Source of the DNA: Ignavibacteria bacterium
GTDB lineage: Bacteria; Bacteroidota; Ignavibacteria; Ch128b
Reading direction: 5' to 3'
NCBI GenBank assembly: GCA_013177855.1
Contig: JABLYA010000001.1
Coordinates: 1,527,573 to 1,591,572 of the forward strand
Length of the DNA: 64,000 nucleotides
The notes beneath the pieces were generated by a model that saw only the letters and a program-made list of their open reading frames with translations, searched no databases and was not told the DNA's origin. How positions within the stretch are numbered: position 1 is the first letter of the stretch; each line of letters starts with the position of its first letter. Positions 24,973-45,317 of the stretch are shown one piece after another. The position numbers were made by a program, and so were the translations under genes.

Positions 24973-27448
24973 AATTCATCTTTTGATTCTTTTCGTTCTA
25001 ATTTGTCTATTATTCAATCAGACATTCGCTCAACAAGTTTTGCCTACCTACAAAATTCTTGGAATTTCGGTCGAGGGGAATGTAACTGCCGATCCGACTG
25101 TTATCATAGCATCGAGCGGACTTAAAATTGGTGATGTAATTCAAGTCCCTGGTGATGCAACAATAAATGCAATAAAAAGAATCCTTGCTCTGAATATTTT
25201 CTCCGATGTTCAACTCATTAAAGAAAGACAAATTGGTGATGGAATTTATATCCTCATCAAAGTACAGGAATTTCCAAGGCTTGAAGATTTCGTTTTTGTT
25301 GGCAATGATGAGATAAGTGAGAAAGATCTAAAGAAAGAAGTCACATTAATAAAAGGACAAACATTAAAACCACAGGATATCAGTAAACTTAAAAGAAATA
25401 TTCTTCGTCTTTACGAAGAAAAGGGAATGTTGAATGCTGAAATTTCTGCATCACTTCTTGAATTTTCGAAAGTTGATACAACTAAGAAGAAACTTTTGAT
25501 TCACTGGATAAACAAGTATGATCCCGAAGATACATACACAACAGAAATTAGTCTGAGCGATAAACCTGATGCAGAAACTATCAAAAGAATTCAAAATCGA
25601 GTTTTATTAAAAATTAAAATCGACGAAGGGAATGTTGTTCTTGTAAAGAAAATTAATTTCTACGGCAATAAGAATTTCTCTAAAAGTAAATTGTTAAGCC
25701 AATTTGATGAGATTGTTGAAAAAAGATGGTGGCGTTTCTGGAAAAAAGAAAAGTTCGATAAAAAGAATTTCGAAAAAGACAAAGAAGCTTTAGTCAAATT
25801 TTATAAAAAGAACGGCTATAAAGATATAACGATATTAAAAGATTCTATTTATACAGACGAAAGCAAAAAAAATCTTTACATTGATATTTATCTTTATGAA
25901 GGCCCCCAGTACAAAGTCAGAAATATACAATGGATTGGAAATACCGTTTTTTCAACCGATGTATTGAACAAAAGACTTGGATTCGAAAAAGGTGATATTT
26001 TCGATTATGAAAAATTTGAAAGAAATCTGAGACAGAATGAACAACAAACCGATGTTTCTTCGCTTTATTTTGATAATGGCTATCTTGGATTTTCTCTTAA
26101 AACTGAAGAAGTAAAAGTTGCAGAAGATTCACTCGATATCATTATCAAAATCGCAGAAAGAAATCAGTTTAAAATTGGTCAGGTAGAAATTAAAGGTAAC
26201 GATAAAACGATGGATAAAGTGATTCGTCGTGAATTGTTTACTAGACCTGGTGATTATTTCAATCGTGCTTTGCTTTTGAGAAGTTTGCAGCAACTCGCAA
26301 ATCTCCAGTATTTTAATCCAGAAAAACTTTATCAAGAAGGACTTGATTATTTCCCTTCGAACGATTCAACAGTCGATATAACTTATAAAGTTGAAGAAAA
26401 ATCCAGTGATTACTTAAATGCTTCGGTAGGTTACAGCGGGAGCTGGGGTTTTAGCGGTGCGGTCGGAATCACATTAACAAACTTTTCGCTTGCTCATCCT
26501 TTTACGCTCGGCGGCGGTCAAGTTCTAAACTTTAACTGGCAATTTGGGATTGGAAATTACTACAGAACCTTTCAGCTCGGTTTCACTGAGCCTTGGTTTA
26601 TGGATACACCTACTTCAATTGGATTCGATGTTTTCGATACAAGACAAATTTATATTTATGAGCTCAGACAATACGGTGGGAGCGTTAGAGTTGGAAGAAG
26701 ACTTTCCTGGCCCGATGATTATTTTATGGTTAATGGAAGTTTTAGATATTATATGAACGATGTTAAAGGCGGCGGTGGTTATTACCGCGAAGGAATGTAT
26801 AAACAATATTCATTGACTTTTGGAATTGGAAGAAAAGATATTGATAACCCAATCTTCCCAAGCACAGGAAGTAATCTCGGAATTGATTTTGATTTATCCG
26901 GTGGTCCATTTCTTCCTGGCGATGTAGATTATTTGAAAGCTGATATTAACCTAGAAGTTTATAGGAGATTATTTGGTACAAATAAAGTTACTCTCTTTTT
27001 AGGAAATTATTACGGCTTTATCTACGAACTTGTGCCAAATACTCCAATTCAACCTTTTGAATATTATTATATGGGTGGGAGCGGTTTAATTATTGCAACT
27101 GAACCTTTGCGAGGTTACGATGACCGTTCAATTGGACCCAAAAATGTTAATGGAAATGTAATTGGCGGTAAAATATTTTCGAGAAATACTTTTGAATTAA
27201 GATTTGCTGTAACTCTTCAACCTATGCCTCTCTATGTTCTTGCTTTTGCAGAGGCTGGAAATGTCTGGAGAGATATGAAAGATGTTAATATATTTGATTT
27301 AAAGAGGAGTGTCGGATTCGGTGCGCGTGTGTTAATAAATCCAATTGGAATGATAGGCTTTGATTTCGGTTATGGATTTGATAGAAAATCAGTAAGTGGT
27401 TACGATCCGCAATGGATCTTCCACTTCCAATTTGGTAGAGGAATGTAA
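24935..27448 (+). CDS. bamA: Outer membrane protein assembly factor BamA
   Basis: Signal peptide, POTRA-like N-terminal repeats, C-terminal beta-barrel with GFDFGYGF and terminal ...FHFQFGRGM; followed by skp paralogs and lpxD. Confidence 0.8.
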   Translation: MEKMLFYSGKQNKIHLLILFVLICLLFNQTFAQQVLPTYKILGISVEGNVTADPTVIIASSGLKIGDVIQVPGDATINAIKRILALNIFSDVQLIKERQIGDGIYILIKVQEFPRLEDFVFVGNDEISEKDLKKEVTLIKGQTLKPQDISKLKRNILRLYEEKGMLNAEISASLLEFSKVDTTKKKLLIHWINKYDPEDTYTTEISLSDKPDAETIKRIQNRVLLKIKIDEGNVVLVKKINFYGNKNFSKSKLLSQFDEIVEKRWWRFWKKEKFDKKNFEKDKEALVKFYKKNGYKDITILKDSIYTDESKKNLYIDIYLYEGPQYKVRNIQWIGNTVFSTDVLNKRLGFEKGDIFDYEKFERNLRQNEQQTDVSSLYFDNGYLGFSLKTEEVKVAEDSLDIIIKIAERNQFKIGQVEIKGNDKTMDKVIRRELFTRPGDYFNRALLLRSLQQLANLQYFNPEKLYQEGLDYFPSNDSTVDITYKVEEKSSDYLNASVGYSGSWGFSGAVGITLTNFSLAHPFTLGGGQVLNFNWQFGIGNYYRTFQLGFTEPWFMDTPTSIGFDVFDTRQIYIYELRQYGGSVRVGRRLSWPDDYFMVNGSFRYYMNDVKGGGGYYREGMYKQYSLTFGIGRKDIDNPIFPSTGSNLGIDFDLSGGPFLPGDVDYLKADINLEVYRRLFGTNKVTLFLGNYYGFIYELVPNTPIQPFEYYYMGGSGLIIATEPLRGYDDRSIGPKNVNGNVIGGKIFSRNTFELRFAVTLQPMPLYVLAFAEAGNVWRDMKDVNIFDLKRSVGFGARVLINPIGMIGFDFGYGFDRKSVSGYDPQWIFHFQFGRGM

Positions 27449-27474
27449 AACAAAAACAAATTAAGAGGTTAAAA

Positions 27475-28008
27475 GTGAAAGCGTTAAAATTAATTTTACC
27501 TTTGATTTTGCTTGTATCAAATTTATTATTTGCACAACAACCAGCAGTTAAAATTGGTGTTGTAGATTCAGAAATAATTTTGAGTCAGCTCCCTGAATAC
27601 AAAAAAGCCCAAGATCAATTAAATGAAATCGTTAAAAAATGGCAGGCCGAACTTGATAGTCTCTCAATCGAATATCAAGAACGCATTGATAATTATCGTA
27701 AACAAGAAGCTCTGATGAGTGATGAAGTTAAGCTGAAAGAACAACAAGAGATAATGAAACTCGAACAGGAAATTTATAATTTCCGTCAAAGAAGATTTGG
27801 ACAACAGGGTGACTTTGCTCAGAAGCAAGAAGAATTACTTACACCAATAAAACAAAACATCATCAAAGCAATTGAGAAAGTTGCTAAAGAAGAAAAAGTT
27901 ACAATTGTTTTCGATAAAGCTGGTGATGTTGTGGTTTTGTATTCAGATCCGTCTTATGATTTAACATTTAAAGTTTTAGATCAATTAAGACGCGGGAAAG
28001 TCAAATAA
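27475..28008 (+). CDS. skp: OmpH/Skp periplasmic chaperone
   Basis: About 170 aa, signal peptide, coiled-coil rich in K/E/Q, conserved position between bamA and lpxD. Confidence 0.7.
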   Translation: MKALKLILPLILLVSNLLFAQQPAVKIGVVDSEIILSQLPEYKKAQDQLNEIVKKWQAELDSLSIEYQERIDNYRKQEALMSDEVKLKEQQEIMKLEQEIYNFRQRRFGQQGDFAQKQEELLTPIKQNIIKAIEKVAKEEKVTIVFDKAGDVVVLYSDPSYDLTFKVLDQLRRGKVK

Positions 28009-28020
28009 TAAGAGGCTTTT

Positions 28021-28524
28021 ATGAAAAAGCTAATCATTCTCTCCGCATTATTTTTTGCTCTTCCAATTTTTGCTCAGGTAAAAATTGGTTATATAAATTC
28101 TGAAGCAATTATGAAAGAACTTCCCGAAGCTCAGGATGCTCAACGAAAACTTGATAATCTGGTTCAAGAATGGCAAGCAGAACTCAGAAAACTTGAATCG
28201 GAATGGAAACAAAAATATGATGCTTACGATCGTGATAAATTAATTATGAGTGATCAAACAAGAGCCGAAAAAGAAAAAGAACTTGTTGATCTTGAAAATA
28301 GAATTATGCAATACCGCGAGCAAAAATTTGGACAAAATGGCGAGCTCTTCCAGAAGCAGGAAGAATTTATGAAACCAATTCAAAACAAAATTTTCAATGC
28401 TCTTGAAAAAATAGCTAAAGAAGAAGGATATGATTTTGTTTTCGATAAGAGCGGTGAAATCCTTCTCCTTTATGCAAATGAAAAATATGATTTAACCAAC
28501 AAGGTCTTACAAGCATTAAAATAA
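28021..28524 (+). CDS. skp: OmpH/Skp periplasmic chaperone (second paralog)
   Basis: Paralogous to the preceding ORF (both have ...QKQEE...PI...I..A.EK.AKEE...VFDK...LY... pattern). Confidence 0.7.
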   Translation: MKKLIILSALFFALPIFAQVKIGYINSEAIMKELPEAQDAQRKLDNLVQEWQAELRKLESEWKQKYDAYDRDKLIMSDQTRAEKEKELVDLENRIMQYREQKFGQNGELFQKQEEFMKPIQNKIFNALEKIAKEEGYDFVFDKSGEILLLYANEKYDLTNKVLQALK

Positions 28525-28528
28525 TTCT

Positions 28529-29575
28529 ATGAATATCACAGTAGAAGAGATTGCCGAGCTTGTTAATGGTGAAGTTGTCGGTAATAAAAATAAAGTGATT
28601 AAAAATGTTGCAAAGATCGAAGAAGCAGGTGAAGACGATCTTACATTTTTATATCAAGATAAATACGAAAAATTTTTAAATCCTGCTTCTTCTTTTGCAA
28701 TACTTGTAAAAAAAGACTTCACCAAAAATTTCCCCGCATTAACTTTAATTAAAGTTGCTGACCCTTATCTTTCTTTCATCAAAGTAATTGAGAAGTATTT
28801 TCTACCAGAAGTAGAATTACCTCCGTTATTTGATAAAAAACCCGAAGAGGTTAGCTTTACTTTTGGAAAAAATTTTAGATGCGGAGAGAATGTTTCTATT
28901 GGAAAGAATTGTAGAATTGGTGATAATGTAACTATTTATTCAAATGTGTCTATTTTGAATGATGTTGAAATTGGTAATGATACAATCATCTATCCAAATG
29001 TAACAATTCGTGAAAGATGCAAAGTTGGCAACAGAAATATTATTCATGCAGGGGTTGTAATTGGCAGTGATGGTTTTGGTTATTACAAAAAACCTGATAA
29101 GACATACAAGAAAATTCCACAGATTGGAATTGTAGTTCTTGAAGATGATGTAGAAGTCGGAGCAAATACTTGCATTGATCGAGCAACAATAGGCGAGACA
29201 AGAATCAAAAAAGGAACAAAGATCGATAACCTTGTTCAAATTGCTCACAATGTAGTTATTGGTGAAAATTGTGCCGTCTCTGGTCAGACTGGATTTGCCG
29301 GAAGCACAAAAGTTGGTAACAATGTAATCATTGCTGGTCAGGTAGGTTTTGCTGATCATATTGAAGTTGAAGATGATGTAGTTGTAATGGCTCAATCGGG
29401 AGTATCTCACAGCTTAAAAAAAGGGAAAGTTTATTTTGGATATCCAGCTATGGAAGTTAGAGAAGCATTTAAATTAAATGCTTTGATTAGAAATCTTCCA
29501 GAGCTGAGCGAAAAATTATTTAAATTGAACAAACGTATCGATGAACTTGAACAAAGACTAAAAGAGAGTAAATAG
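28529..29575 (+). CDS. lpxD: UDP-3-O-(3-hydroxyacyl)glucosamine N-acyltransferase
   Basis: N-terminal LpxD domain (ITVEEIAELVNGEVVG), left-handed beta-helix hexapeptide repeats, C-terminal helix; position after skp. Confidence 0.85.
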   Translation: MNITVEEIAELVNGEVVGNKNKVIKNVAKIEEAGEDDLTFLYQDKYEKFLNPASSFAILVKKDFTKNFPALTLIKVADPYLSFIKVIEKYFLPEVELPPLFDKKPEEVSFTFGKNFRCGENVSIGKNCRIGDNVTIYSNVSILNDVEIGNDTIIYPNVTIRERCKVGNRNIIHAGVVIGSDGFGYYKKPDKTYKKIPQIGIVVLEDDVEVGANTCIDRATIGETRIKKGTKIDNLVQIAHNVVIGENCAVSGQTGFAGSTKVGNNVIIAGQVGFADHIEVEDDVVVMAQSGVSHSLKKGKVYFGYPAMEVREAFKLNALIRNLPELSEKLFKLNKRIDELEQRLKESK

Positions 29576-29585
29576 GAGAAATTTT

Positions 29586-31004
29586 ATGGTTGAACAACAG
29601 CGTACCATTGCAAAACCAGTTACAGTTTCAGGGATTGGTATTCATACTGGTACAGAATGTACAATGACATTTAAACCTGCACCAGAAAATTATGGAATTA
29701 GATTTATTCGCGTAGATCTTGGTGGTAATCCAGAAATTCCTGCAATCGTTGAAAATGTTGTTGATGTTTCAAGAGGAACCACAATCGCTGTTGGGGAAGC
29801 GAAGGTTCATACCGTTGAACATGTTCTTGCTGCAGTTTATGGATTGAAAATTGACAACTTAAAAATTGAACTTGATGGAATTGAACCGCCAATTGGTGAT
29901 GGAAGTGCAAAACTTTATGTTGACGCACTTCTTGAAGCTGGTATTGTGGAACAGGAAGCGCCTAAAGATTATTTAGTAATTGATCAAACAGTTATGTATC
30001 ACGACGAAGAAAGAGGAATTGATATAGTTGCACTTCCTCTTGATGACTTTAGAATTACAATAATGATTGATTACAACAATCCTGCTCTCGGAAGTCAGCA
30101 TTCAAGTTTATTTAGCCTTGAAAAAGAATTTATTACAGAGTATTCCACTGCAAGAACATTTTGCTTTTTAAGCGAAGTTGAACAACTCGTTAATCAAAAT
30201 TTAATAAAAGGCGGAGATATTGATAACGCTGTTGTAATTGTTGACAGAAAACTTGATGAAAAAGAATTAAACAATTTAGCTCAAAAGTTAAATATCAAAC
30301 ATCCTTTGTTCATTGGTGAAAATGGAATTCTAAATAACGAGACTCTCCGATTCAAAAATGAACCTGCGCGTCACAAAGTTTTAGATTTGATTGGTGATCT
30401 TGCATTAATTGGTGTCCCGCTTAAAGCACAAATTTTAGCAGCTCGCCCTGGTCATAGAGCAAATGTTGAATTTGCTCGAATGATTAGAAAACTTTATCAG
30501 CAGAAAAAACTTGAGAAGAAATATCAATTTATTAAAAAGGAAGGCGTTGTATTTGATGCAAATGCAATTCTCAGAATCCTTCCCCATCGTTATCCTTTTG
30601 TGCTTGTCGATAAGATCGTTGATTTGAAAATGGGAGAAAGAGTCGTTGGTATTAAAAATGTAACTATCAACGAACCATATTTTCAGGGACATTTCCCGGG
30701 ACAAATGGTTATGCCCGGCGTCTTGATTATTGAAGCTCTTGCCCAAACAAGTGGAATTTTGCTCCTTAATTCTATCCCTGATTTTGAAAATAGTTTAGTT
30801 TACTTTATGGCTATTAACAATGCAAAATTTAGAAAACCAGTTGTTCCAGGTGATCAGTTAGTTTTAGAAGTTGAACTTGTAAATTCAAGAAGCAAAACAT
30901 TCACAATGAAGGGAAGAGCCATCGTTGATGGAAATCTTGCCGCCGAAGCTGAATTTATGGCTGCAGTTGTTCCAAAAGAAGAAAGTCAAAAATCACAGAA
31001 ATAA
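29586..31004 (+). CDS. lpxC/fabZ: Bifunctional UDP-3-O-acyl-GlcNAc deacetylase / 3-hydroxyacyl-ACP dehydratase (LpxC-FabZ fusion)
   Basis: N-terminal LpxC (QRTIAKPVTVSGIGIHTG, HTVEHVLAA) fused to C-terminal FabZ hot-dog domain (LPHRYPFVLVDKIVD...GHFPGQMVMPGVLIIEALAQ). Confidence 0.85.
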   Translation: MVEQQRTIAKPVTVSGIGIHTGTECTMTFKPAPENYGIRFIRVDLGGNPEIPAIVENVVDVSRGTTIAVGEAKVHTVEHVLAAVYGLKIDNLKIELDGIEPPIGDGSAKLYVDALLEAGIVEQEAPKDYLVIDQTVMYHDEERGIDIVALPLDDFRITIMIDYNNPALGSQHSSLFSLEKEFITEYSTARTFCFLSEVEQLVNQNLIKGGDIDNAVVIVDRKLDEKELNNLAQKLNIKHPLFIGENGILNNETLRFKNEPARHKVLDLIGDLALIGVPLKAQILAARPGHRANVEFARMIRKLYQQKKLEKKYQFIKKEGVVFDANAILRILPHRYPFVLVDKIVDLKMGERVVGIKNVTINEPYFQGHFPGQMVMPGVLIIEALAQTSGILLLNSIPDFENSLVYFMAINNAKFRKPVVPGDQLVLEVELVNSRSKTFTMKGRAIVDGNLAAEAEFMAAVVPKEESQKSQK

Positions 31005-31009
31005 GACTT

Positions 31010-31783
31010 ATGCCTGAAATTCATCCTACCTCAATTGTATCAAGCGAAGCACAGATCGCAGATGATGTTGTAATTGGTCCCTTCTGTATTGTTGAAGGAG
31101 ATGTAAAAATTGACAGCGGAACAAAATTATTAAGTCATGTTGTCGTTTATAATGGTGCAAGAATCGGAAAGAACAATAAAATTTTTCCGGGCGCTGTAAT
31201 TGCTGCTGTCCCCCAAGATTTAAAATTTAATAATGAATATACAGAAGTCTTTATCGGTGATAATAATACAATTAGAGAAGCCGTTACGATAAGTCGGGCA
31301 ACTTCGGCAACAAAAAAAACAATTGTTGGAAATAATTGCCTTTTGATGGCTTATGTTCACATTGCTCATGATTGTGTGGTTGGTAATAATTGTATTCTTG
31401 CTAATTCGGTTGAGCTTGCTGGTCATGTGCATGTTGAAGATTATGTTATCATTGGCGGTCTGACGGGTGTTCATCAATTTACAAGTATCGGGCAGCATGC
31501 GATGATTGGTGCTTGTTCAAAAATTGTGAAAGACATTCCTCCTTACACTTTATTCAGCGGCAATCCGATACATTACGAAGGATTAAACATCATTGGATTG
31601 AAGCGGCGTGGATTTTCAGTTGATGCAATCACCTCACTCAAGGAAGCTTATAATATTCTTTACAGTCCATTCTTTAATACTACTCAAGCTGTTGAAAAAA
31701 TCAGGAATGAAATTAAACAGACAAGCGAAGTAAAAAATCTTTTGGACTTTATTGAAAAAAGTCGTCGCGGAATTAGTAAATGA
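31010..31783 (+). CDS. lpxA: Acyl-ACP--UDP-GlcNAc O-acyltransferase
   Basis: N-terminal IHPTSIV...A.I, hexapeptide repeats, about 257 aa, position after lpxC/fabZ. Confidence 0.85.
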   Translation: MPEIHPTSIVSSEAQIADDVVIGPFCIVEGDVKIDSGTKLLSHVVVYNGARIGKNNKIFPGAVIAAVPQDLKFNNEYTEVFIGDNNTIREAVTISRATSATKKTIVGNNCLLMAYVHIAHDCVVGNNCILANSVELAGHVHVEDYVIIGGLTGVHQFTSIGQHAMIGACSKIVKDIPPYTLFSGNPIHYEGLNIIGLKRRGFSVDAITSLKEAYNILYSPFFNTTQAVEKIRNEIKQTSEVKNLLDFIEKSRRGISK

Positions 31784-32526
31784 AAGAATGGTACTATATA
31801 GATACGGGGAAAAACACCGGCACCTTTAATATGGATTTTGATTTAAAGCTTGTTGAAAAAGTTAGGGAAGAAAGAATTCCATTTTTACGTTTCTATCAAT
31901 GGCAGCCTTTTTCTATTTCTTTGGGCTACCATCAAAAAATCGAATCGATTAATTCAAAATTATGCGAAAAAGATTCCATTGATATTGTTAGAAGACCAAC
32001 CGGCGGCAGAGCAATTTTGCATTCCGATGAATTAACCTACTCCGTTACAATACCCCTTGATTTGTTTTCTCCGCACGAAGTTTATTATAAAATTAATTAT
32101 GCATTGCTTGAGGGATTACATCTCTATGATGAAAAATTGAAGTCGGTTGAACTCGAAAAATCACAGATTGATTTCAAGAATTTTTACAAATCATCTCGTT
32201 CTATTCCTTGCTTTTCAAGTTCAGCAAGAAATGAAATTAAATTTCAAAACAAAAAGCTTGTAGGTTCAGCACAAAGAGTTATTAATGATATAACTCTTCA
32301 GCATGGTTCAATTTTAATTGGAGATTATCACAAAAGAATAGTTGATTACCTTAACTTAAATGATGAAGAAAGAAAAATTTTAAGAAGCGATCTTGATGAA
32401 AAAACAATTTCATTAAAAGAAATTCTCAACTCTGAAATTGATCTGGAAAAATTAAAATATTGCTTAAAAAAAGGTTTTGAAAAAGTTTTTGAAGTAAATT
32501 TTATCGAGAGTGAGGTGATGGTATGA
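31780..32526 (+). CDS. Biotin/lipoate A/B protein ligase family protein (lipoate-protein ligase / octanoyltransferase-like)
   Basis: BPL/LPL catalytic-domain-like motifs ([19 protein letters not shown]; KLVGSAQR); 248 aa. Confidence 0.55.
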
Positions 32527-33338
32527 GCTCGACATCAGAAATTAAGAAAGTTACCACGAGAAGAATTCAGGAGATGAAAGATAACGGCGAAAAAATAACT
32601 GCACTTACAGCATATGATTTTTTAATTGCTCGCCTCTGTGATCGTGCTGGGATTGATATTATTCTTGTGGGCGATTCGCTTGGAAATGTTTTTCAAGGAC
32701 ATTTGACAACATTGCCAGTCACTCTCGACGATATGATTTATCATACAAAAGCTGTCCAACGTGGTGTCAAAAGAGCAATGATTGTTGTTGATATGCCCTT
32801 TATGTCTTACCAGACAAACATCGAAGAAGCATTTAGAAATGCTGGAAGAATTATGAAAGAAACTGATGCAGGTGCAGTGAAAATTGAAGGTGGTGAAATT
32901 TTTGCGGAAACAGTTGCAAAGCTTACTGCAAATGGAATTCCAGTAATGGGGCACATTGGATTAACACCACAATCGATTCATCGTTTCGGTGGTTATCAGC
33001 CAAGAGGAAGAGAAAAAGAAGAAGCTCAGCAATTAATTCGTGATGCTAAAGCGCTTGAAGAGGCAGGTGCTTTTGCTATTGTAATTGAAAAAGTACCAGC
33101 AAAACTTGCAAAGAGAATTACTCAATCCGTTAAAATTCCAACAATCGGAATCGGCGCAGGAAAATTTGTTGATGGACAGATACTCGTTGTGTATGATATG
33201 CTTGGTTTGACAGAAGAATTTAATCCTCGATTTGTTAGAAAGTATGCTCATCTCTCTGAAACTATCTTCGATGCATTTAAACATTATATCGAAGATGTTC
33301 GAAGCGGCAATTTCCCAAACGAGAAAGAAAGTTATTAA
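32523..33338 (+). CDS. panB: 3-methyl-2-oxobutanoate hydroxymethyltransferase
   Basis: Typical PanB N-terminus ([37 protein letters not shown]) and K(I)EGG motif. Confidence 0.9.
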
Positions 33339-33653
33339 TAATCACTTCTCCGAGTTTTAATCATTAATCATTTCATAAAAATATTTTTAAACACATCAAA
33401 CAAAATCTTATCTCTCGCATTAAGAATTTTTTTGAGTATGAAAAAGAATTAATAAAAACTTGAATAATGTTTTCTTCTTATTTCAAAAAATCATTCACAT
33501 CATTTTCAACAAGAAAAATTTTTTTATCAACTCACACATCACTCATCAAAAAAAATTTTTAAAATCATTCAAAAACTATTGACAAAAAATTTATAAATCA
33601 TATATTAGCAAGTGAATTAAGTGAATATGTTGAACAAATTGAGAGAGTGATTT

Positions 33654-34736
33654 ATTAGTACTTATACTTCTTCTGGAAAAAAATTAAATGTTGTTCTCAC
33701 CTATAACATTAAGCAGGAAGGTTTTGACACTCCATCGGCTAAGTATCCTTTTCTCAAAAAATTCAATTACAATTCTGAGATCAATCAAGATACTTTTGCA
33801 GAATGGGACACTGAAGAAACAATTAATGCCGTCAGAGATGCACTCGCATTATATCACAATGTAACTTTAGTTGAAGCTGATAATGATGCATTCGAAACAT
33901 TCCGTGAGTTAAATCCCGATATCGTGTTCAATATTGCAGAAGGTTTTAATGGAATTAGTCGTGAAGCCCAGATTCCTGCCATGCTTGAATTCTTAAATAT
34001 TCCATACACTGGTTCAGATCCTGTCACACTTGGAATTTGTTTAGATAAATCTCGAACAAAAGAAATACTTTCGTTTTATAAGATTCCAACCCCTCAATTT
34101 GTTTTGATCGATAAAGATGATGATTATAGTTCAATTGATTTTCCTTTGCCTGCTATCGTAAAACCGGTTGCAGAAGGTTCGAGCAAAGGAATATATAATT
34201 CATCGGTTGTGAGAACAAAAGAAGAATTATTAAGAGAAATTCAAAAAATACATCAGATTTATAATCAATCTGCACTGGTCGAAAAATTTCTGGAAGGAAG
34301 AGAATTTACCGTTGCAATTCTTGGAAATGGAAAAGATGCAAAAGTTTTGCCAATTATTGAGATGAAATTTGAAGAATTGCCGGAAGGAGTTTTGCCAATT
34401 TATTCTTATGAAGCGAAATGGATTTTCGATACAAGAGAAGATCCTCTTGATATTTATGAATGTCCAGCCAATATAGATGAAAGATTAAGAACTCAGATTG
34501 AAAAAATTGCGCTTGCAACATATCGAGTTTTGCGATGCCGAGATTGGTCAAGAATTGATATCAGACTTGATGAAAATGATGTTCCAAATGTACTTGAGAT
34601 AAATCCTTTACCGGGAATTTTGCCCGATCCAAAAGATAATTCCTGTTATCCAAAAGCTGCAAGAGCAGCTGGAATGACTTACGAGGAAATGATAAATGCA
34701 GTTTTGAATGAAGCAAGAAAAAGATATGGAATATGA
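33654..34736 (+). CDS. ATP-grasp ligase, D-Ala-D-Ala ligase-like (first of tandem pair); start codon unresolved
   Basis: Frame is open from 33651 (after TGA 33648-33650) and homologous to the N-terminus of the downstream paralog already from about 33678 (KKLNVVLTYN vs KILLVYNQ), but there is no ATG/GTG/TTG in frame before GTG 33924. ATP-grasp motifs (IVKPV.EGSSKGI, E.FLEGREFTVAILG). Confidence 0.55.
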   Translation: MSTYTSSGKKLNVVLTYNIKQEGFDTPSAKYPFLKKFNYNSEINQDTFAEWDTEETINAVRDALALYHNVTLVEADNDAFETFRELNPDIVFNIAEGFNGISREAQIPAMLEFLNIPYTGSDPVTLGICLDKSRTKEILSFYKIPTPQFVLIDKDDDYSSIDFPLPAIVKPVAEGSSKGIYNSSVVRTKEELLREIQKIHQIYNQSALVEKFLEGREFTVAILGNGKDAKVLPIIEMKFEELPEGVLPIYSYEAKWIFDTREDPLDIYECPANIDERLRTQIEKIALATYRVLRCRDWSRIDIRLDENDVPNVLEINPLPGILPDPKDNSCYPKAARAAGMTYEEMINAVLNEARKRYGI

Positions 34737-35782
34737 AAGAAGATATTAAAATACTTTTAGTATATAACCAACCAGTTGGTGGAATATTCGAAAGTTATGA
34801 TGGCAGGAGGATAAAATCTGAATCTTCTAACTCAATAGATTTATCTGAAGTTGGTGTTTTAGAAGAGTATGAAGAAATTAAAGAAGCATTAACTGAAAGA
34901 GGATATAAAACAGAATCTTTTAATCTTCTTGATAACATTAGTGAATTATGTTCAAAAGTTGGAGCGGGGAATTATGATGTTGTCTTCAATTTAGTTGAGA
35001 GTGTTGGCGGTGAATCAATTAAAGAGATGTATGTTGCTGGAATTTATGAACTTTATAATATCCCTTACACTGGATGCAGCGCTGTTACTCTTGGTCTTTG
35101 TTTGAATAAACATCGTGCAAAATTGCTAATGAAGGGAGCTGGATTTAATGTCCCGGACTGGAAACTTTATGCGAATCCATCAAAAATAATTTTTGATTCA
35201 AAACCTGAATTTCCAATGATTGTGAAACCATCACAGGAAGATGCAAGTGTTGGAATAAGTGAGCAATCGGTTGTATATAATGAAAATGAATTAAAAGAGC
35301 AGCTTGAATTTATTTATAATACTTTAAAGCAGCCAGTTTTGGTTGAAGAATATATTGAAGGAAGAGAAATTAATTCAGCTATTCTTGGTGATAAAGAAAA
35401 AGTCGCTCTTCCACTTTCTGAAATTAGCTTTGATACTTTGCCAGATGATCTACCAAAGATTGTAACTTATGACGGCAAGTGGATTAAAGATAGTCTTTAC
35501 TGTCAAAATACAATCCCTGTGTGCCCTGCACCGCTTGATGATGAACTTGCAGAACATATAAAGAGAATTGCTCTAGATGTTTCAAATCTTTTCGGTTGCC
35601 GAGATTACTGCCGGGTTGATTTTCGAATTGATAAAAATAATAAACCTTACATTCTTGAAGTAAATCCAAATCCAGATATCTCAAAAGATGCTGGTTTTGC
35701 CAGAGCAGCGAAAGCGTACGGATTAGATTATGATGAACTTTTAATTCGCATAATTGAATTTGCTTTAGAAAGAAGAAAATGA
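34733..35782 (+). CDS. ATP-grasp ligase, D-Ala-D-Ala ligase-like (second of tandem pair)
   Basis: Paralog of the preceding ORF (NIPYTGCSAVTLGLCLNKHRAKLLM vs NIPYTGSDPVTLGICLDKSRTKEIL; MIVKPSQEDASVGI; EEYIEGREINSAILG); 4-bp overlap with upstream gene. Confidence 0.7.
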   Translation: MKEDIKILLVYNQPVGGIFESYDGRRIKSESSNSIDLSEVGVLEEYEEIKEALTERGYKTESFNLLDNISELCSKVGAGNYDVVFNLVESVGGESIKEMYVAGIYELYNIPYTGCSAVTLGLCLNKHRAKLLMKGAGFNVPDWKLYANPSKIIFDSKPEFPMIVKPSQEDASVGISEQSVVYNENELKEQLEFIYNTLKQPVLVEEYIEGREINSAILGDKEKVALPLSEISFDTLPDDLPKIVTYDGKWIKDSLYCQNTIPVCPAPLDDELAEHIKRIALDVSNLFGCRDYCRVDFRIDKNNKPYILEVNPNPDISKDAGFARAAKAYGLDYDELLIRIIEFALERRK

Positions 35783-36264
35783 AAATTCGAGAAATGAAAA
35801 AAGAAGACAGAGAAAAATTAAAAGATATTTTATTTAGAACAGAAAATTTTTCACTCGAAGAGAAAGAAGTAGGATTAGAATTAATTGATATTGCCTTGAA
35901 TAATCCAGAACAAAAAGATTATTTCTTCAAAGTTGCCGAAGAAAATGGAAAAGTTTTAGGATATTACTGCATAGGTCATCGTGCATTAACTGATGGAGTT
36001 TATGATTTGTATTGGATTGTTGTTGATCCTGGAACACGCGGTTCAGGAGTTGGATCACAATTGATAAAAGATGCTGAAGAATTTGTTGCATCAAAAAATG
36101 GAAGATTAATTTTAGCAGAAACATCATCGCGTGATGACTATCAAACTACAAGAAATTTTTATAAGAAAAACAATTACAATGAACTTGCTATCATCAAAGA
36201 CTTTTACAAACAGGGTGATAGCTTAATAATCTTCGGCAAATACTTACAAAATCAAGGGGATTAA
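35779..36264 (+). CDS. GNAT family N-acetyltransferase (candidate beta-lysine acetyltransferase)
   Basis: GNAT acetyl-CoA-binding motif IVVDPGTRGSGVGSQL; 161 aa; translationally coupled between ATP-grasp ligase and lysine 2,3-aminomutase. Confidence 0.65.
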   Translation: MKIREMKKEDREKLKDILFRTENFSLEEKEVGLELIDIALNNPEQKDYFFKVAEENGKVLGYYCIGHRALTDGVYDLYWIVVDPGTRGSGVGSQLIKDAEEFVASKNGRLILAETSSRDDYQTTRNFYKKNNYNELAIIKDFYKQGDSLIIFGKYLQNQGD

Positions 36265-36266
36265 CT

Positions 36267-37406
36267 ATGGAACTCTGGCAAAAAATGATCAGAGACAGCA
36301 TTCATTCAGTCGATCAACTCGTCGAGAAATTTAAACTCGATAGACGAGTGGCTGAAAGACTGGATAAATTCTTCCAGGCTCGCATCAATCCATATTATCT
36401 TAGTTTGATCCGTTATCCTGGCGATCCAATATGGTTGCAATGCGTTCCAGATGAAACAGAACTAAATGATATTGACGCTCCTGAAGATCCTTTGGGTGAA
36501 GATTCAATGAGTCCTGTTCCAAATATAACTCACAGATATCCTGATCGTGTTCTCTTTCTTACAACGAGCCAGTGTGGAATGTACTGTCGATTCTGTACAA
36601 GGAAGAGAAAGGTTGGTGATTCATCCAAAATTTCAATGCGAGGTCTTGAGGCAGCATTCAAATACATTGAAGAGCATAAAGAAATTCGAGATGTTATTCT
36701 TTCTGGTGGCGATCCATTGATGTTAACTGATGCAATGCTTGAAAAAATTCTTCAAAGATTAAGACAAATTCCTCATGTTGAAATAATTCGTCTCGGTACT
36801 CGAATGCCAGTAGTTCTTCCACATCGAATTACCCCGAAACTTGTAAGGATGCTGAAGAAATATCATCCAATTTATGTGAATACTCATTTTAATCATCCCT
36901 GGGAAATTACTCCTGAAAGCAAACGAGCCTGCGAACTTTTAGCCGATGCTGGAATTCCGATTGGTAATCAAACCGTACTTATGAAAGGCGTAAATGATGA
37001 TCCAGAAGTTATTAAAGAACTTTTCAGAAAATTACTTTTAATGAGAGTTAGACCTTATTACTTGTATCAAGCTGATTTGACAAAAGGTGCAAATCATTTC
37101 AGAACACCTGTGAAAGTCGGTCTCGAAATTATGGATAAATTGCGTGGACATACATCGGGACTTGCAGTTCCATATTATGTTATTGATGCACCTGGCGGTG
37201 GTGGAAAAATTCCATTGCTTCCTCAATACGTTTTGTATCAGGATGATGAAAAATTAATTCTTAGAAATTACAAATATGAAACTTTCGTTTATCCAGATGT
37301 TAAGCCTGAAGAATACAGATCCGGTATCCCTGTTCAAACAGAAACTTACGAAAGCAATTCAACTATTTCGTTACCTGTAATTCAATACCAGAACGAAAAC
37401 GAATGA
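36267..37406 (+). CDS. kamA: Lysine 2,3-aminomutase (radical SAM, KamA family)
   Basis: HRYPDRVLFLTTSQCGMYCRFCTRKRKVG (CxxxCxxC radical SAM cluster in KamA context); SGGDPLML motif; 379 aa. Confidence 0.85.
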   Translation: MELWQKMIRDSIHSVDQLVEKFKLDRRVAERLDKFFQARINPYYLSLIRYPGDPIWLQCVPDETELNDIDAPEDPLGEDSMSPVPNITHRYPDRVLFLTTSQCGMYCRFCTRKRKVGDSSKISMRGLEAAFKYIEEHKEIRDVILSGGDPLMLTDAMLEKILQRLRQIPHVEIIRLGTRMPVVLPHRITPKLVRMLKKYHPIYVNTHFNHPWEITPESKRACELLADAGIPIGNQTVLMKGVNDDPEVIKELFRKLLLMRVRPYYLYQADLTKGANHFRTPVKVGLEIMDKLRGHTSGLAVPYYVIDAPGGGGKIPLLPQYVLYQDDEKLILRNYKYETFVYPDVKPEEYRSGIPVQTETYESNSTISLPVIQYQNENE

Positions 37407-37428
37407 TTTAAAATTTTAGTTAATCGAA

Positions 37429-37466
37429 AAGGTTTAGCGGATAAACTCTGCTAAACCTTTTTTAAT
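37429..37466 (+). terminator. Rho-independent terminator after kamA
   Basis: aaggtttagc...gctaaacctt 10-bp stem followed directly by a T-run (tttttaatttt). Confidence 0.65.
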
Positions 37467-37563
37467 TTTAAAAACATATCTCGCTTAAAACGGAAGTTCT
37501 GAATTTTCAATTTGTCTAATTTTATTTCTTAAATTCTTTTGCTTTTTATATTTTTTAATTGCT

Positions 37564-38982
37564 ATGAAAAATCTATTTGAAAACTTCGGCCTTTATCTTG
37601 ATTATTATGAGCTTACAATGGCTCAGGGTTATTTTTTGAGCAATCGACGCAATTTAAAAGCAACCTTCGATTACTTTTTCCGCAAAAATCCTTTTGGTTC
37701 TGGTTATACAGTTTTTGCAGGAGTTTCCGATTTACTTGAGTTATTAAAAATTTTTCGTTTTGGAAGTGAAGCAATTGATTTTTTGAAATCGAAAGGCTTT
37801 AAAGATGAATTTCTCGACTACTTGAAAGAATTTCGTTTTGCTGGAAGTATTTATTCTGCTAGAGAAGGTGAAATTGTTTTTCCTTACGAGCCTTTAATTA
37901 GAGTCGAGGGAAATATTATTGAAACTCAGATTATTGAGTCACTTCTTCTTAATCTAATTAATTTTGAATCATTGATTGCAACAAAAGCAAAAAGAATTCG
38001 ATTTGCGGCAAAAGATAAAATTATATCTGACTTTGGATTAAGAAGAGGTCAGGGACTGGCATCTTTATTTGCAAGTCGAGCTGCGGTAATTGGTGGAGTG
38101 AACAGTACTTCTAATGTTTTAGCAGCATTTAATTATGATTTAATTCCAGCTGGTACTCAAGCTCACTCCTGGATTCAAAGTTTCGAAAATGAACTCGAGG
38201 CTTTTAGAAAGTTTGCCGAGTTTTATCCTGATAATTGTATTCTTCTTGTTGATACATTCGACACACTGCGGAGTGGAATTCCAAATGCGATTAAAGTTGC
38301 AAAGGAGCTTGAGCAAAAGGGTAAAAGATTGAAAGCAATTCGATTAGATAGTGGTGACCTTGCTTACTTCTCAAAGAAAGCAAGAAAAATGTTAGACGAG
38401 GCTGGATTGAATTATGTGAAAATTGTCGCTTCTAATCAGCTCGATGAATATCTAATTAAAAGTCTTGACGAACAAAATGCACCAATTGATTTCTTTGGTG
38501 TTGGGACAAATCTAATTACCGGTCAGAAAGATGCAGCGTTGGATGGTGTTTATAAAATCTGTCAGATTGAAGATAATCCAACAATTAAATTATCTGAAGA
38601 TATTAGCAAAGTAACTTTACCGGGACCAAAAAAGATTTACCGTTATTTTAATGGTGAAGGAAAATTCTATGCTGATTGTATCGCGTTGATTGATGAAGAT
38701 GAAATTGACTTAATGATTCATCCGTTCGATATTTATAAAAAATGTAATTTGAAAGAATTGAAAAGAGAAGAAATTCTGGAACAGGTTGTAAAAAATGGTG
38801 ATGTAATTGTTCCCGAAAAATCTGTAAATGAGATTGCATCTTATTCTGAATTTCGTTTCTCGCAACTGCCTGATGAACATAAGAGATTTGAGTATCCCCA
38901 TATCTATAAAGTTGGAATAACTCCGAAACTTTTAGAGCTTCGAGATAATTTAATCAGAAAAAATAAGGAGGGTAAATTATGA
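37564..38982 (+). CDS. pncB: Nicotinate phosphoribosyltransferase
   Basis: About 470 aa NAPRTase-type protein (N-terminal LDYYELTMAQGYF); immediately followed by and overlapping pncA. Confidence 0.75.
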   Translation: MKNLFENFGLYLDYYELTMAQGYFLSNRRNLKATFDYFFRKNPFGSGYTVFAGVSDLLELLKIFRFGSEAIDFLKSKGFKDEFLDYLKEFRFAGSIYSAREGEIVFPYEPLIRVEGNIIETQIIESLLLNLINFESLIATKAKRIRFAAKDKIISDFGLRRGQGLASLFASRAAVIGGVNSTSNVLAAFNYDLIPAGTQAHSWIQSFENELEAFRKFAEFYPDNCILLVDTFDTLRSGIPNAIKVAKELEQKGKRLKAIRLDSGDLAYFSKKARKMLDEAGLNYVKIVASNQLDEYLIKSLDEQNAPIDFFGVGTNLITGQKDAALDGVYKICQIEDNPTIKLSEDISKVTLPGPKKIYRYFNGEGKFYADCIALIDEDEIDLMIHPFDIYKKCNLKELKREEILEQVVKNGDVIVPEKSVNEIASYSEFRFSQLPDEHKRFEYPHIYKVGITPKLLELRDNLIRKNKEGKL

Positions 38983-40748: not shown

Positions 40749-43700
40749 TTATTTCAAATAGACCATTTTCTTTATTGATTTATAATCTCCAGAAATTAAT
40801 TGGTAGAAATATATTCCACTTGGAATTTTGTACTGAGCAGCATCAAAAATAAAGCTATAGATACCTGCTTCTCTTTCTTCATCAATCAATGTAGAGATTT
40901 CTCTGCCAATCACATCGAACAATTTTAACTGAACTCTGGATTTTTCTTTTAATGCAAACTTAATCTTTGTAACAGGATTAAACGGATTTGGATAATTTTG
41001 ATAAAGTTCAGTTCTATCTGGAATTGTAACAGGTGAAAGTTTTAACAGCTTTATGTTTTTATCCTCGATAACTAATTCATCACCGGGCGTAAGTGTTTGG
41101 CTAATCTCTTGATTAGGCTCGCTTTCAACTTTGACTTTTAATTTTGTTGATTTAATTCTAATTGGATATTCTCCCGAGTTTATGATCAAATAATTTTCCT
41201 TATTAACATTTTCAACAAATCGATTTGAAGAAAATCGAACATCAAAAATTTGAGCTGGTGGAGTTGGTGGCAATTCAAACAAATCATTTTCCAAATTGTC
41301 ACTCAGATAAAGTTTTACGCTTCGATCTTGATTATCTGTAATTATTAATTCACCAGCGTCACTTAATATTTTTTCAAGTGTTGAGAATTTAGACTTTACT
41401 TTCCCCATATTTTGATTAAAAATAATTTTCCCATCTTGAGAAACTTTTATCCAGTAACCTTTGCCTTTTTGAATTGTGCTGGCAACAAAATATCCATTCT
41501 GGTAACCGAAGAAATAAGATTGCAAAATGTCAGGCGGATTCGTTGTAATCGAATTCACTGAAACATCATTTTCAAATCCACCAATTAAATTCCATCCAGC
41601 TTTTACATTAGCAAAAGGATTTTCAATTGGTAAACCGCAAACCGTAACTTGAGTTGAGTTTGGATATTTCAACCAATAACCTTTTCCATTTGAAAGAGTA
41701 TCAACTGTGTAGTAACCGATTGATTGACTAAATGCAAACGCTGATGATGTTGCATTTGGAAAGATATCAGTCTTTGACATATTTGTTCTTGCAACAGGAA
41801 CAGAAACAATATTCCATCCTGAATTTAAAGAAAAGTTAACGCACAACTCAGTTCTAATCGAAAAAGTATTGTCGCTAATATCGAAGACATTTGGATTTTC
41901 AAGAGAAGAAATTTTAATCAAACATTGTTCTGAAGTAGAACCCGTTACTAACCATTCATAAGAACCAGATTGAGCAGCAATGTTTGTTGCAATTAGATTC
42001 CATGTGCTTCCATTATTAGTCGAAATTTCTATTTTCACATTGTTTACATTCGTACTTGTCCACTCAATTAATTTATGTTGATTCACATACCAGATTTCAC
42101 CGCCATTTGGTTTTGTAACTTGAATTGAACTTGCTTGAACAACTACACCACCAGAGAGCAGCGCAACATTACCAAGATTTGACCCAACCAAAATTTCTTT
42201 TGAACCATTATTATCAAGATCAGGGACAACAGCAACTTCTCTTGCCTGAGTATTTCCACCAAATGAATAAAGAGCCAGTTCATTACCATTGCTGCCATTT
42301 ACAATTAGAGCTCCTTGATTTTGTACTGCAAACACAACATCATCGGAGCCGTCTCCATTTAAGTCTGGAATTATATCAACACCCATAGTATTGCCAGTTG
42401 ATTTGTACCATAGAGTATTTCCATTTGCACCATCAACACAAACAGCGCCGCCTGCTAAAATTGAAATTACAACTTCATCAACTCCATCTCCGTTTACATC
42501 TCTTAAGATTTTCATTTGAGTTGGTGCACCGCCGCCGGTTGAAAATGTCCACAGAGGTAAACCAGTTGTTCCTTTCAATCGATAAACTGGGCCCCAGAAA
42601 GCTCCAGCAATTACATCAGGTTTTTGACCTGGAACTGGAAATACTAAAACTTCTTTTGCACCGCCAGTATTCGAACCAACTTGATATGCCCAGATTAAAT
42701 TTCCATTTGCTCCGCTTAATGCCTGAAATTGATAAACTGGTTCACCAACTGTTGCAATGACATCTGGAATTCCATCATTGTTTATATCTGGAATTGCGGT
42801 AACTCCATGAGTAAATCCACCGACAAATCTTTGCCAGATAATTTGTCCATTTGGTCCATTGAAAAGATAAACCGATCTTCTTCCAGCTACTCCGCCTGAT
42901 TGAGTTGCACTTGCAGCTGCTATTACATCTGGAATACCATCGTTATTAAAATCGGTTGTTGCATCGACACCAGTTATATCACCTAAAGCAAAACTATCGG
43001 GATGATCAGTTCCAAATTTCCATAACATTTGACCTGTTTTGCCATTTAAAGCATAAACGGACTCATTTCCACCACCTGTTCCGATTACTACATCATTAAA
43101 GCCATCGCCATTTAAGTCACTTGCGATTGAAAGCGCTTTTTGATAAGAATAATCTCCGGTTGAGCCAATAGAACCTGCACTTGAATTTGAAATGTAAGTA
43201 TTAAAAGACCACAGAGTATCATTCCCGCCTGAAGAATTTCCATTTAATGCTGCAGTCCAATAGTTTTCAGTGCAGACAATTACATCAGATTTGCCATCAC
43301 CGGTTATATCGTTGATAGCTCTAATTCCTTTTATGGTTCTGTATGTGTTTGAAATTGGATGATTGGGCATTGTATGAGTCCATAAAGGTTGAGCAAGTGA
43401 AAGATTCTGAATTTCGCCTGTGCCTGTTAAAAAAATCTTTGCTTCTGGAGCATTTGTAGAATTGTTGATGATTCTTAAAGTATCAGAAATTAATCCTGAA
43501 GATCTTGGATTGAACCACACTCTTACATATTTAAAACTATTAGCAGGTAAATTTAAAGGAAAGATATCTGGTTCAAGATAAAAATCTGGAATTGATGTAT
43601 TCCATGAAAAAATGTTAATTGGTTGATTGCTTAAGTTTTCAATTTTCATCCACCAGAAATTTGTGCTTCCAACTCTTTTGGTTCCAAAATTATAAGACGG

Positions 43701-44885: not shown

Positions 44886-45137
44886 AAGTCACCTCAATTA
44901 AATGTTATGACCTGGTTCAAATTAATTAATTATTTTTTTAAAATCCTGGAAAAGATTTGAATGAAAATGAGGGTATTTGATTTTCTTTCTCTATAAATCT
45001 TATAAGGGAAGATTATTGTATTAACAGGCTCGAGGTAATTTGAATTTAAATGAAAGTTCTTTATTAAAAGTCTTAATGGATTTGAATTTCAAATAAAAGC
45101 TGACTACTTTTGAATTGTAAACATAAGGGGTTCAAAA

Positions 45138-45317
45138 ATGAAGAATAAAGTTATTTTAATCCTTCTCATTGTCGCCGCTCTAAGTATTGTAATAGGACTA
45201 ATTGGAAAATTTTCCGGCTCTTTTATTGTTTTTGCAAATGCAACTTGGCATATGTTCGCTCAAACCTGTTTATTGGCTGCCATTGCATTTGGGGTCGGTA
45301 AACTCCTGGAGAAATAA
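45138..45317 (+). CDS. Small predicted membrane protein (59 aa, two hydrophobic helices), not in the supplied ORF track
   Basis: ATG at 45138 preceded by aagggg 8 nt upstream; MKNKVILILLIVAALSIVIGLIGKFSGSFIVFANATWHMFAQTCLLAAIAFGVGKLLEK; TAA stop at 45315-45317. Confidence 0.35.
   Translation: MKNKVILILLIVAALSIVIGLIGKFSGSFIVFANATWHMFAQTCLLAAIAFGVGKLLEK

Follow-up and report, generated by a model that had tools for sequence, protein, structure and literature searches.

A conserved operon linking paired Ddl-like ATP-grasp ligases to a GNAT acetyltransferase and a KamA-family aminomutase, and its possible beta-lysine product

Layout of the operon and conservation of its gene set

The window analysed here is a 64,000-nucleotide stretch of the genome of an Ignavibacteria bacterium (assembly GCA_013177855.1, contig JABLYA010000001.1, positions 1,527,573 to 1,591,572 of the forward strand). 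At window positions 33579-37462 it carries one plus-strand transcription unit, which runs from a promoter through the genes for two ATP-grasp ligases related to D-alanine–D-alanine ligase (Ddl), here called AG1 and AG2, a GNAT N-acetyltransferase and a KamA-family lysine 2,3-aminomutase, and ends at a terminator. The original prediction for this DNA described a compact four-gene cluster for beta-lysine chemistry, and every element that it listed was found again in the sequence. Pfam agrees for all four proteins, placing Dala_Dala_lig_C in AG1 and AG2, GNAT domains in the third gene product, and Radical_SAM and LAM_C domains in the fourth. The features of the unit are:

33579-33606, plus strand: sigma70-type promoter, with TTGACA at 33579-33584, a 16-nt spacer and TATATT at 33601-33606 (consensus scan)
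33641-33647, plus strand: Shine-Dalgarno-like GAGAGAG, 6 nt 5' of the ATT start (read from the sequence)
33654-34736, plus strand: AG1, Ddl-like ATP-grasp ligase, 360 aa, with a probable ATT (AUU) start (Pfam, NCBIfam, orthologue 5' ends)
34733-35782, plus strand: AG2, second Ddl-like ATP-grasp ligase, 349 aa, paralogue of AG1 (Pfam, NCBIfam, AlphaFold2)
35779-36264, plus strand: GNAT N-acetyltransferase, 161 aa (Pfam Acetyltransf_7 and Acetyltransf_1, PF13508 and PF00583)
36267-37406, plus strand: KamA-family radical S-adenosylmethionine (SAM)/pyridoxal phosphate (PLP) lysine 2,3-aminomutase, 379 aa, with a short C-terminus (Pfam Radical_SAM and LAM_C)
37426-37462, plus strand: intrinsic terminator with a 16-bp stem, a 5-nt loop and a T-rich tail (terminator scan)

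The promoter matches the consensus at 11 of 12 positions and is the top score of the region in the consensus scan; its TTGAC...TATATT pair is also kept 5' of AG1 in related Ignavibacteriota loci. The ATGA overlaps that had been described lie at 34733-34736 (AG1/AG2) and 35779-35782 (AG2/GNAT), GNAT and KamA are separated by a 2-nt gap, and the strong terminator noted 3' of kamA corresponds to the 16-bp-stem hairpin at 37426-37462. The KamA and GNAT proteins are database entries NPV11424.1 and NPV11423.1, respectively, and AG2 is 100% identical to an NCBI protein.

A degenerate-pattern scan based on an AG2 alignment, with one genome per species, returned at least 592 relatives, from which the best 80 loci were analysed (individual loci are given by L-numbers). 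Nearly all of these are from Ignavibacteriota, and they include Ignavibacterium album, Melioribacter roseus, Stygiobacter electus and Kryptonia. The order AG1-AG2-GNAT-KamA was found in 72 of these best 80 species-level loci and in 50 of the 52 loci with 1.5 kb or more of spare sequence on each side. Five of the eight remaining loci are cut by contig ends and three have a lone AG2-like paralogue. Across the Ignavibacteriota loci KamA is 70-97% identical and AG2 41-82% identical. The flanks of the locus vary, with RecG and a peptidase in L001, argG and recJ in L077, and a sigma54 activator in Desulfovibrio. The four-gene arrangement is far beyond chance.

The gene set also extends outside Ignavibacteriota. 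The order KamA-AG1-AG2-GNAT was observed in Desulfovibrio mangrovi, in a contig resembling D. alaskensis G20, in several lineages and in many metagenome contigs, the Desulfovibrio-type clusters having been reached by searching with the 2R7H (Dde_3044) sequence. A Planctomycetota metagenome-assembled genome (MAG; L077) shares the order of the window. Of the two Ddl-like genes, the leading one has without exception its best match in AG1 and the following one in AG2, which argues that the AG1/AG2 duplication is ancient. The order of AG1, AG2 and GNAT is fixed while KamA shifts between the end and the front. A metagenome scan with a divergent AG2 alignment yielded 80 more loci, 23 of them fully visible; KamA adjoins the AG pair in 19 of these 23, and 15 have GNAT. 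Fusions were also found, one joining AG1 and AG2 in a single 712-aa protein (L173) and another joining AG2 and GNAT in a 498-aa protein within a cluster arranged AG1-KamA-AG2GNAT (L175). An exhaustive search placed the size of the AG2 family at 1,524 clusters at 50% identity (E ≤ 1e-30 to AG2). The linkage of the ligases to kamA in related genomes is tight and ancient, spanning several phyla, both gene orders and fusions; ordinary Ddl-type enzymes unlinked to kamA, the outcome that the original prediction had named as counting against it, are not what we found.

Many clusters outside Ignavibacteriota add a fifth member of 585-597 aa, in which an N-terminal 240-aa GNAT domain (Pfam E 1e-8) is joined to a C-terminal part that matches acetylpolyamine amidohydrolases (APAH) with E 1e-64 to 1e-66. 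This fusion of a GNAT-like and an APAH-like part is found within or next to the cluster in 7 of the 23 fully visible diverse loci, its overall share among the diverse loci being about a quarter to a third, and also just downstream of the cluster in L083 (8629-10386) and inside the operon in L088 (5211-7004). It is placed between AG2 and GNAT or, in one locus, between KamA and AG1, and was further seen in L096, L101, L102, L106, L112, L117, L127, L137, L149 and L159. An APAH-like gene was sought in the window and in the Ignavibacteriota loci, and none was found there. In four loci (L088, 2671-3195; L102, 1520-2128; L096; L106) a cysteine-rich CxxCxxCC protein (PF03692) is encoded between KamA and AG1; it may serve the radical SAM enzyme as its dedicated metal or electron-transfer partner. 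Clustering of the flanking open reading frames (ORFs) of 89 diverse loci gave nothing recurrent beyond the APAH fusion, the CxxCxxCC protein (four loci) and a sigma54 activator (four loci). This sigma54 enhancer-binding protein lies directly 5' of Desulfovibrio-type clusters (L083, 2857-4293; L086, 2874-4310; L176, 884-2353), and L083 has a -24/-12 element, TTGGCATATCTGTTGCT, at 4456-4472, approximately 100 nt 5' of KamA. Of ten loci, only L083 showed the strict sigma54 -24/-12 pattern 5' of KamA and the nine others showed none, so sigma54 control is not established in general.

The operon of the window is flanked by unrelated housekeeping genes. Upstream, positions 24935-33338 hold an outer-membrane/lipid A block (bamA, two skp-like genes, lpxD, an lpxC-fabZ fusion and lpxA) followed by a lipoate ligase gene and panB, and downstream lie pncB and pncA. 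Farther on, the minus strand of 40749-48454 encodes two large proteins, each with a C-terminal sorting domain for type IX secretion; one of them, of 1378 aa, has FG-GAP repeats. An Rfam scan of 33300-37700 for a leader riboswitch gave only a chance microRNA match (E 0.41), and the PADLOC defence models gave no relevant match. Among the other loci, a second, lone AG2-like ligase (41-42% identical) is encoded away from the operon in L072 (5074-7053; a Melioribacter roseus MAG), L067 and L081; that of L072 is divergent from the gene for a 277-aa protein with a Peptidase_C39/BtrH-like domain. The contig with the AG2::GNAT fusion (L174, 4272-7737) also encodes a small zinc-ribbon (TFIIB/Elf1-like) protein and a protein with a B-block_TFIIIC domain, and its lineage may be archaeal.

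Family assignment and active-site residues of the enzymes

KamA contains SQCGMYCRFCTRKRK, which includes the radical SAM motif CGMYCRFC, and matches the lysine 2,3-aminomutase of C. subterminale (PDB 2A5H) with E 1e-123 (phmmer). The three Fe-S cysteines, Arg134, Asp293, Asp330 and the PLP-binding Lys337 (2A5H numbering) are identical between the two proteins. In 109 cluster-linked KamA orthologues the CxxxCxxC cysteines and Arg134 are invariant (109/109), and Asp293, Asp330 and Lys337 are present in 108, the remaining one being gapped there. Asp293 and Asp330 reportedly separate lysine from glutamate aminomutases, a distinction credited to Ruzicka and Frey, and their presence suggests that the substrate of KamA is lysine. 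The retention of these lysine-specific residues bears out the earlier assignment of kamA as a lysine-type enzyme.

On TIGR03820, the AblA/KamA model, KamA scored 476.3 bits against a cut-off of 525.4 and matched profile positions 10-367 of 417. Ten KamA orthologues from other loci scored 446-507 bits on the same model, all of them covering only about positions 3-374 of 417. The subfamily model TIGR00238 was the only one that KamA passed; on the EpmB model it reached 240 bits against a cut-off of 369.3. The zinc site in 2A5H is formed by Cys268 and a C-terminal cysteine cluster. In the counted KamA orthologues position 268 is Asp, Asn, Ser or Glu, and the tail after Lys337 is free of cysteine in 68 of 72 Ignavibacteriota-type KamA proteins. 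By these comparisons the KamA proteins of the cluster are best regarded as a distinct, short-tailed clade that stops ~50 positions before the end of the profile and resembles AblA/KamA far more than EpmB.

The GNAT protein scores above the Pfam cut-offs of both PF13508 and PF00583, and its acetyl-CoA motif R-G-S-G-V-G (RGSGVG) fits the pattern R/Q-x-x-G-x-G/A. Among the NCBIfam models it fits RimI best, with 48.6 bits where the cut-off is 86.4, and the AblB model is absent among its NCBIfam matches at E ≤ 0.01. The closest solved relative is PDB 2R7H (Dde_3044, uncharacterised; E 1e-24), whose gene belongs to the same cluster in the D. alaskensis G20-like contig. AblB has a longer, two-part architecture of about 270 aa, compared with the 161 aa of the protein here. 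The original prediction had identified kamA and the acetyltransferase gene with the AblA/AblB pair of methanogens, and this part did not stand: the acetyltransferase is a 161-aa RimI-like protein and, since it gives no AblB match, the comparison is an analogy and not a homology.

AG1 and AG2 match Pfam Dala_Dala_lig_C with E 1e-36 and 3e-34, respectively, and are paralogues of each other (36% identity, E 7e-56). Both fall below the cut-off of 243 of the NCBIfam Ddl model NF002378, at 199.0 bits for AG1 and 167.4 bits for AG2, and both miss all other Ddl, DdlA and Van models by wider margins. The top 25 NCBIfam matches of the ligases are all Ddl or Van and none is MvdC/D or RimK. The AlphaFold2 model of AG2 has a confidence score (pLDDT, predicted local distance difference test) of 82, and its best PDB matches in Foldseek are all Ddl, with template-modelling (TM) scores of 0.74-0.85 at 22-26% identity. 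In one database protein, P0464, a DUF3109 domain is fused to the ligase.

Active-site residues were compared in 64 AG1 and 86 AG2 sequences using E. coli DdlB numbering, with a provisional DdlB reference sequence, which aligned as expected. Glu15 is kept in 64 of 64 AG1 and in 74 of 86 AG2 sequences, and Lys97, Lys144, Glu180, Glu187, Lys215, Arg255, Asp257, Glu270 and Asn272 are kept in both ligases. As all of the Ddl ATP, Mg and catalytic residues are kept, AG1 and AG2 are both probably active. The pocket for D-Ala is another matter, its residues (His63, Ser150, Tyr216, Gly276, Ser281 and Leu282 of DdlB) not being fully retained in either ligase. The changes His63Glu, Tyr216Trp and Met259Arg are common to the two. 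AG1 keeps Ser150, Gly276 and Ser281, by which Ddl holds the carboxylate of its acceptor, with Cys282 instead of Leu282 and an insertion after position 276. AG2 has Ser150Ala, Gly276Asp/Cys, Asp280 and Leu282Gly, and its acceptor-site motif reads N-x-N-P-[D/C]-[IL]-x-x-D-A-G. The acceptor site of AG1 thus still appears amino-acid-like, and the remodelled site of AG2 suggests a different, possibly cationic acceptor. The NCBIfam scores under cut-off and the altered substrate pockets agree with the expectation that the ligases are not ordinary Ddl.

The start codon of AG1

The original prediction placed the start of AG1 at ATG 33627. This position cannot serve, as an in-frame TGA follows after seven codons, at 33648-33650. 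TGA is an ordinary stop in the window, where it ends 12 of 32 large ORFs, those of AG1 and AG2 among them. Recoding of the TGA, or a frameshift, was considered as a means of saving ATG 33627 and was rejected, TGA being a normal stop and no other frame entering AG1. Between the TGA at 33648-33650 and GTG 33924 the AG1 frame is open, contains no ATG, GTG or TTG, and encodes a Ddl-like N-terminal domain. With a start at GTG 33924, AG1 would lose ~90 residues from its N-terminus, among them the Glu aligned with Ddl Glu15. We conclude that AG1 most likely initiates at the non-canonical ATT 33654, which gives a predicted gene of 33654-34736 and a protein of 360 aa.

The 5' end of AG1 was compared among Ignavibacteriaceae/Melioribacteraceae-type loci, comprising 24 relatives together with the window and L003. 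The aligned codon is ATT in all of the compared loci except for ATC in three and ATA in one, and it is located 15-16 codons (~45 nt) 5' of the conserved Y/F-N motif of AG1. Reading by eye, we found AGGAG, AGGA or GGAG 5-10 nt 5' of this codon in 23 of the 24 relatives; the window and L003 have GAGAGAG in place of the AGGAG-type Shine-Dalgarno sequence of the relatives. The ATT-type start is seen in, among others, L029, L030, L050, L054 and L069. Fifteen AG1 genes among those listed, including that of the window, have no canonical start at all in the open frame; they include L026, L029, L030 (Melioribacter roseus), L032, L038, L039, L043, L050, L055, L056, L062, L070 and L082. A 5' Leu codon of AG1 is TTG in some relatives and TTA, CTG, CTT or CTA in others. 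In other clades AG1 starts with ATG (MDVALVYN...) or TTG.

A single ATT-to-ATG change would give a strong start yet stays absent, and this persistent lack of ATG suggests selection for weak or initiation factor 3 (IF3)-sensitive initiation of the coupled first gene. Given the AUU start and the overlapping genes downstream of it, the output of the whole operon is probably low or tied to start-codon discrimination. The start codon also has a consequence for annotation. Public AG1 gene calls in this clade are 270-aa or 251-aa stumps that lack the N-terminal domain, and this holds in many independent assemblies; the stump corresponds to window 33924-34736, and stump proteins are P0361-P0369. ORF listers and public gene callers return stumps because the first canonical start is GTG 33924, and the ATT start is the cause of this systematic error in the annotation of AG1.

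The mini-ORF MLNKLRE that begins at the discarded ATG (33627-33650) has TGA as its stop and ends 3 nt before the ATT. It was considered as a leader peptide or as the precursor of a ribosomally synthesised and post-translationally modified peptide, and rejected: its sequence recurs in L003 alone, the closest relative; in L004 the upstream ORF is an unrelated one, and in most relatives there is no counterpart. It is probably not functional. To our knowledge, AUU starts are known for only two genes in E. coli, infC and pcnB, and the conserved AUU start of AG1 would be a rare, clean case for non-canonical initiation outside infC.

A possible pathway and its alternatives

We propose, with a probability of about 0.5, that the operon builds a small amide-linked metabolite from beta-lysine by two ATP-dependent ligations and an N-acetylation. 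What the sequences show is gene content, the conservation of genes and residues, fusions and sequence signals; each chemical step, the order of the steps, the product and its physiological role are inferred. KamA would convert L-lysine to beta-lysine (3,6-diaminohexanoate), as its conserved residues indicate. AG1 and AG2 would act in series, each forming one amide bond via an acyl-phosphate, with an amino acid as the acceptor in the first ligation and a different, possibly cationic one in the second. GNAT would use acetyl-CoA to acetylate either beta-lysine or the product of the ligations at a free amine, and the acetyl group would be removable where the APAH-like fusion is present. APAH enzymes take part in reversible acetylation of aminoalkyl chains. 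Because many clusters outside Ignavibacteriota add the GNAT-like/APAH fusion, the acetyl moiety is possibly a transient protecting or neutralising group. It could, for example, stop an activated diamino acid from cyclising, as in arginine biosynthesis, which is the textbook precedent for acetyl protection of an activated amino acid; alternatively, it could act as a reversible switch. The expected product would be an N-acetylated conjugate of beta-lysine resembling a di- or tripeptide, which would be cytoplasmic and serve as a solute or a polyamine-like cation.

A comparable combination of enzymes is found in the synthesis of N-acetylglutaminylglutamine amide (NAGGN), in which Ngg couples N-acetylation and non-ribosomal peptide ligation to give N-acetylglutaminylglutamine (PMC8070244). 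As in Ngg/AsnO, an acetyltransferase and a ligase form a unit in the operon, through the ATGA overlap of AG2 and GNAT and the fusion in L175. The operon differs in having two Ddl-type ligases instead of one and a radical SAM aminomutase that supplies a beta-amino acid. No AsnO-type glutamine amidotransferase was found in the operon of the window or among the recurrent neighbours of the 89 diverse loci.

Several observations weigh against the proposed metabolite. In the fully visible diverse loci, 5 of 23 consist of KamA-AG1-AG2 without a detectable GNAT and 4 of 23 have no KamA beside the AG pair, so the module is not indivisible. L171 encodes a stand-alone fusion of an AG2-like ligase and a GNAT of the Acetyltransf_3 type (6001-7563) with no KamA or AG1 nearby, and the theme of ligase and GNAT is therefore not bound to beta-lysine everywhere. 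Sequence does not reveal which substrates AG1 and AG2 use and, given that GNAT lacks homology to AblB, epsilon-N-acetylation is just one option among others for beta-lysine. The operon is moreover present in essentially all sampled Ignavibacteriota from non-saline habitats. A purely salt-stress role is disfavoured by this near-universal presence in a largely non-halophilic phylum, with KamA 70-97% identical, and the distribution looks more like that of a core function than that of a classic stress solute.

The target of the ligases might instead be a protein or a ribosomal peptide, to which they would add beta-lysine or some other residue for the RimI-like GNAT to cap, either in an EpmA-independent analogue of the beta-lysylation of elongation factor P (EF-P) or in a graspetide-like system of the kind found in microviridin clusters. 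We consider this unlikely. KamA is a paralogue of EpmB and, as in the EpmB/EpmA system, a KamA-family aminomutase would supply beta-lysine to an ATP-dependent ligase. Protein-modifying ATP-grasp enzymes are known (RimK), two ATP-grasp enzymes and one GNAT make up the microviridin enzyme set, with the same count of enzyme classes as here, and RimI, the best NCBIfam match of GNAT, is a protein N-acetyltransferase; core-gene-like conservation across the phylum would fit a housekeeping target. However, KamA scores 476 bits on the AblA/KamA model and 240 on that for EpmB (cut-off 369), and the ligases are ATP-grasp enzymes and not of the lysyl-tRNA synthetase-like type. Both are Ddl-type proteins of full length that include the small-substrate domain at the N-terminus, all AG1 and most AG2 still have the Glu to which the amino group of the donor binds, and their 25 best NCBIfam matches are all Ddl or Van, with neither MvdC/D nor RimK among them. 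Unlike the microviridin-type clusters, the set contains a PLP/radical SAM enzyme for a free amino acid, and neither efp, epmA, a precursor peptide gene nor a conserved small precursor ORF was found in or beside the cluster in any lineage examined. Slightly less probable still is a polymer or oligomer, in which iterative ligases would make oligo-beta-lysine or an alternating polyamide whose charge or mobilisation is controlled by acetylation and deacetylation. Such iteration is known from cyanophycin synthetase and RimK, two distinct ligases could form backbone and branch bonds, and the APAH-like hydrolase of many clusters could process the product. Yet the nearest relatives of the ligases by sequence and fold are single-turnover dipeptide ligases, the ligases have no primer-binding or extra domains, and no depolymerase is conserved in Ignavibacteriota.

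Two further explanations were considered. AG1 and AG2 could be specialised Ddl paralogues that make an alternative dipeptide, with a beta-lysine residue, for peptidoglycan or an envelope polymer, and the Ddl fold along the whole chain (TM 0.74-0.85), the presence of every ATP, Mg and catalytic residue, the retention in AG1 of the acceptor-carboxylate residues Gly276 and Ser281, and the adjoining lpx/bamA envelope block in the window would all suit this idea. It seems improbable to us, since both ligases, 22-30% identical to Ddl/Van, fail the Ddl, Van and DdlA equivalog cut-offs widely and form a fixed heterologous pair linked to kamA and not to mur/fts. The envelope neighbours are not conserved, the flanks of L001, L077 and Desulfovibrio being different, none of the loci has mur or fem genes next to the cluster, and the pairing of acetyltransferase and deacetylase points to soluble amine chemistry. 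Most improbable, in our view, is plain synthesis of N-epsilon-acetyl-beta-lysine through KamA and GNAT, with both ligases unrelated. In methanogens kamA and an acetyltransferase (AblA/AblB) suffice for acetyl-beta-lysine (Pflueger et al. 2003, cited in PMC3543383), and both AblA/AblB and B. subtilis KamA/YodP resemble the operon in that a KamA with the lysine-binding Asp pair is encoded beside an acetyl-CoA-dependent GNAT (PMC3543383). Against this, no part of the module is more constant than the AG pair, whose order is kept across phyla, AG2 overlaps GNAT and is fused to it in L175, and GNAT lies outside the AblB family. The operon departs from AblA/AblB further in that its GNAT is a 161-aa RimI/2R7H-like protein, its KamA lacks the C-terminal ~50 residues and scores below the AblA cut-off, it has two ATP-grasp ligases as obligatory partners, and an APAH-like deacetylase frequently joins the set.

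The proposal of a small amide-linked beta-lysine metabolite has, as far as our literature searches went, no published counterpart: they turned up no description of the gene set, in keeping with the original remark that the arrangement was not recognised as a described pathway. The D. alaskensis G20 functional-genomics and D. vulgaris sigma54 regulome papers do not mention the cluster, and no NCBIfam model names AG1, AG2 or GNAT. The enzyme classes are familiar but not their combination, which we regard as a new variant on known beta-lysine and ATP-grasp ligase chemistry. Beta-lysine has so far been met in lysine fermentation, in the osmolyte acetyl-beta-lysine, in EF-P modification and in a few antibiotics from non-ribosomal peptide synthetases. 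The cluster is present in the cultured organisms Ignavibacterium album, Melioribacter roseus, Stygiobacter electus and Desulfovibrio alaskensis G20, for the last of which a transposon library exists (PMC4045070). As a compact four-gene cluster occurs in cultured hosts, the question of its product is directly testable.

Tentatively, and at somewhat less than even odds, we suggest that these clusters represent an unrecognised, widespread class of beta-lysine amide metabolites, made by a Ddl-derived ligase pair with N-acetyl protection and deprotection. The class would be core to the phylum Ignavibacteriota and common in sulfate reducers and other anaerobes, and in one large clade its production would be throttled by the conserved AUU start. 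In a bolder variant the ligases would beta-lysylate a protein, which would constitute a second, ATP-grasp-based route to beta-lysyl modification. If the suggested class of metabolites is real, enzymes that are now annotated as 'D-alanine--D-alanine ligase' or 'ATP-grasp domain protein' would provide a route to beta-lysine amides that is independent of both the ribosome and non-ribosomal peptide synthetases.

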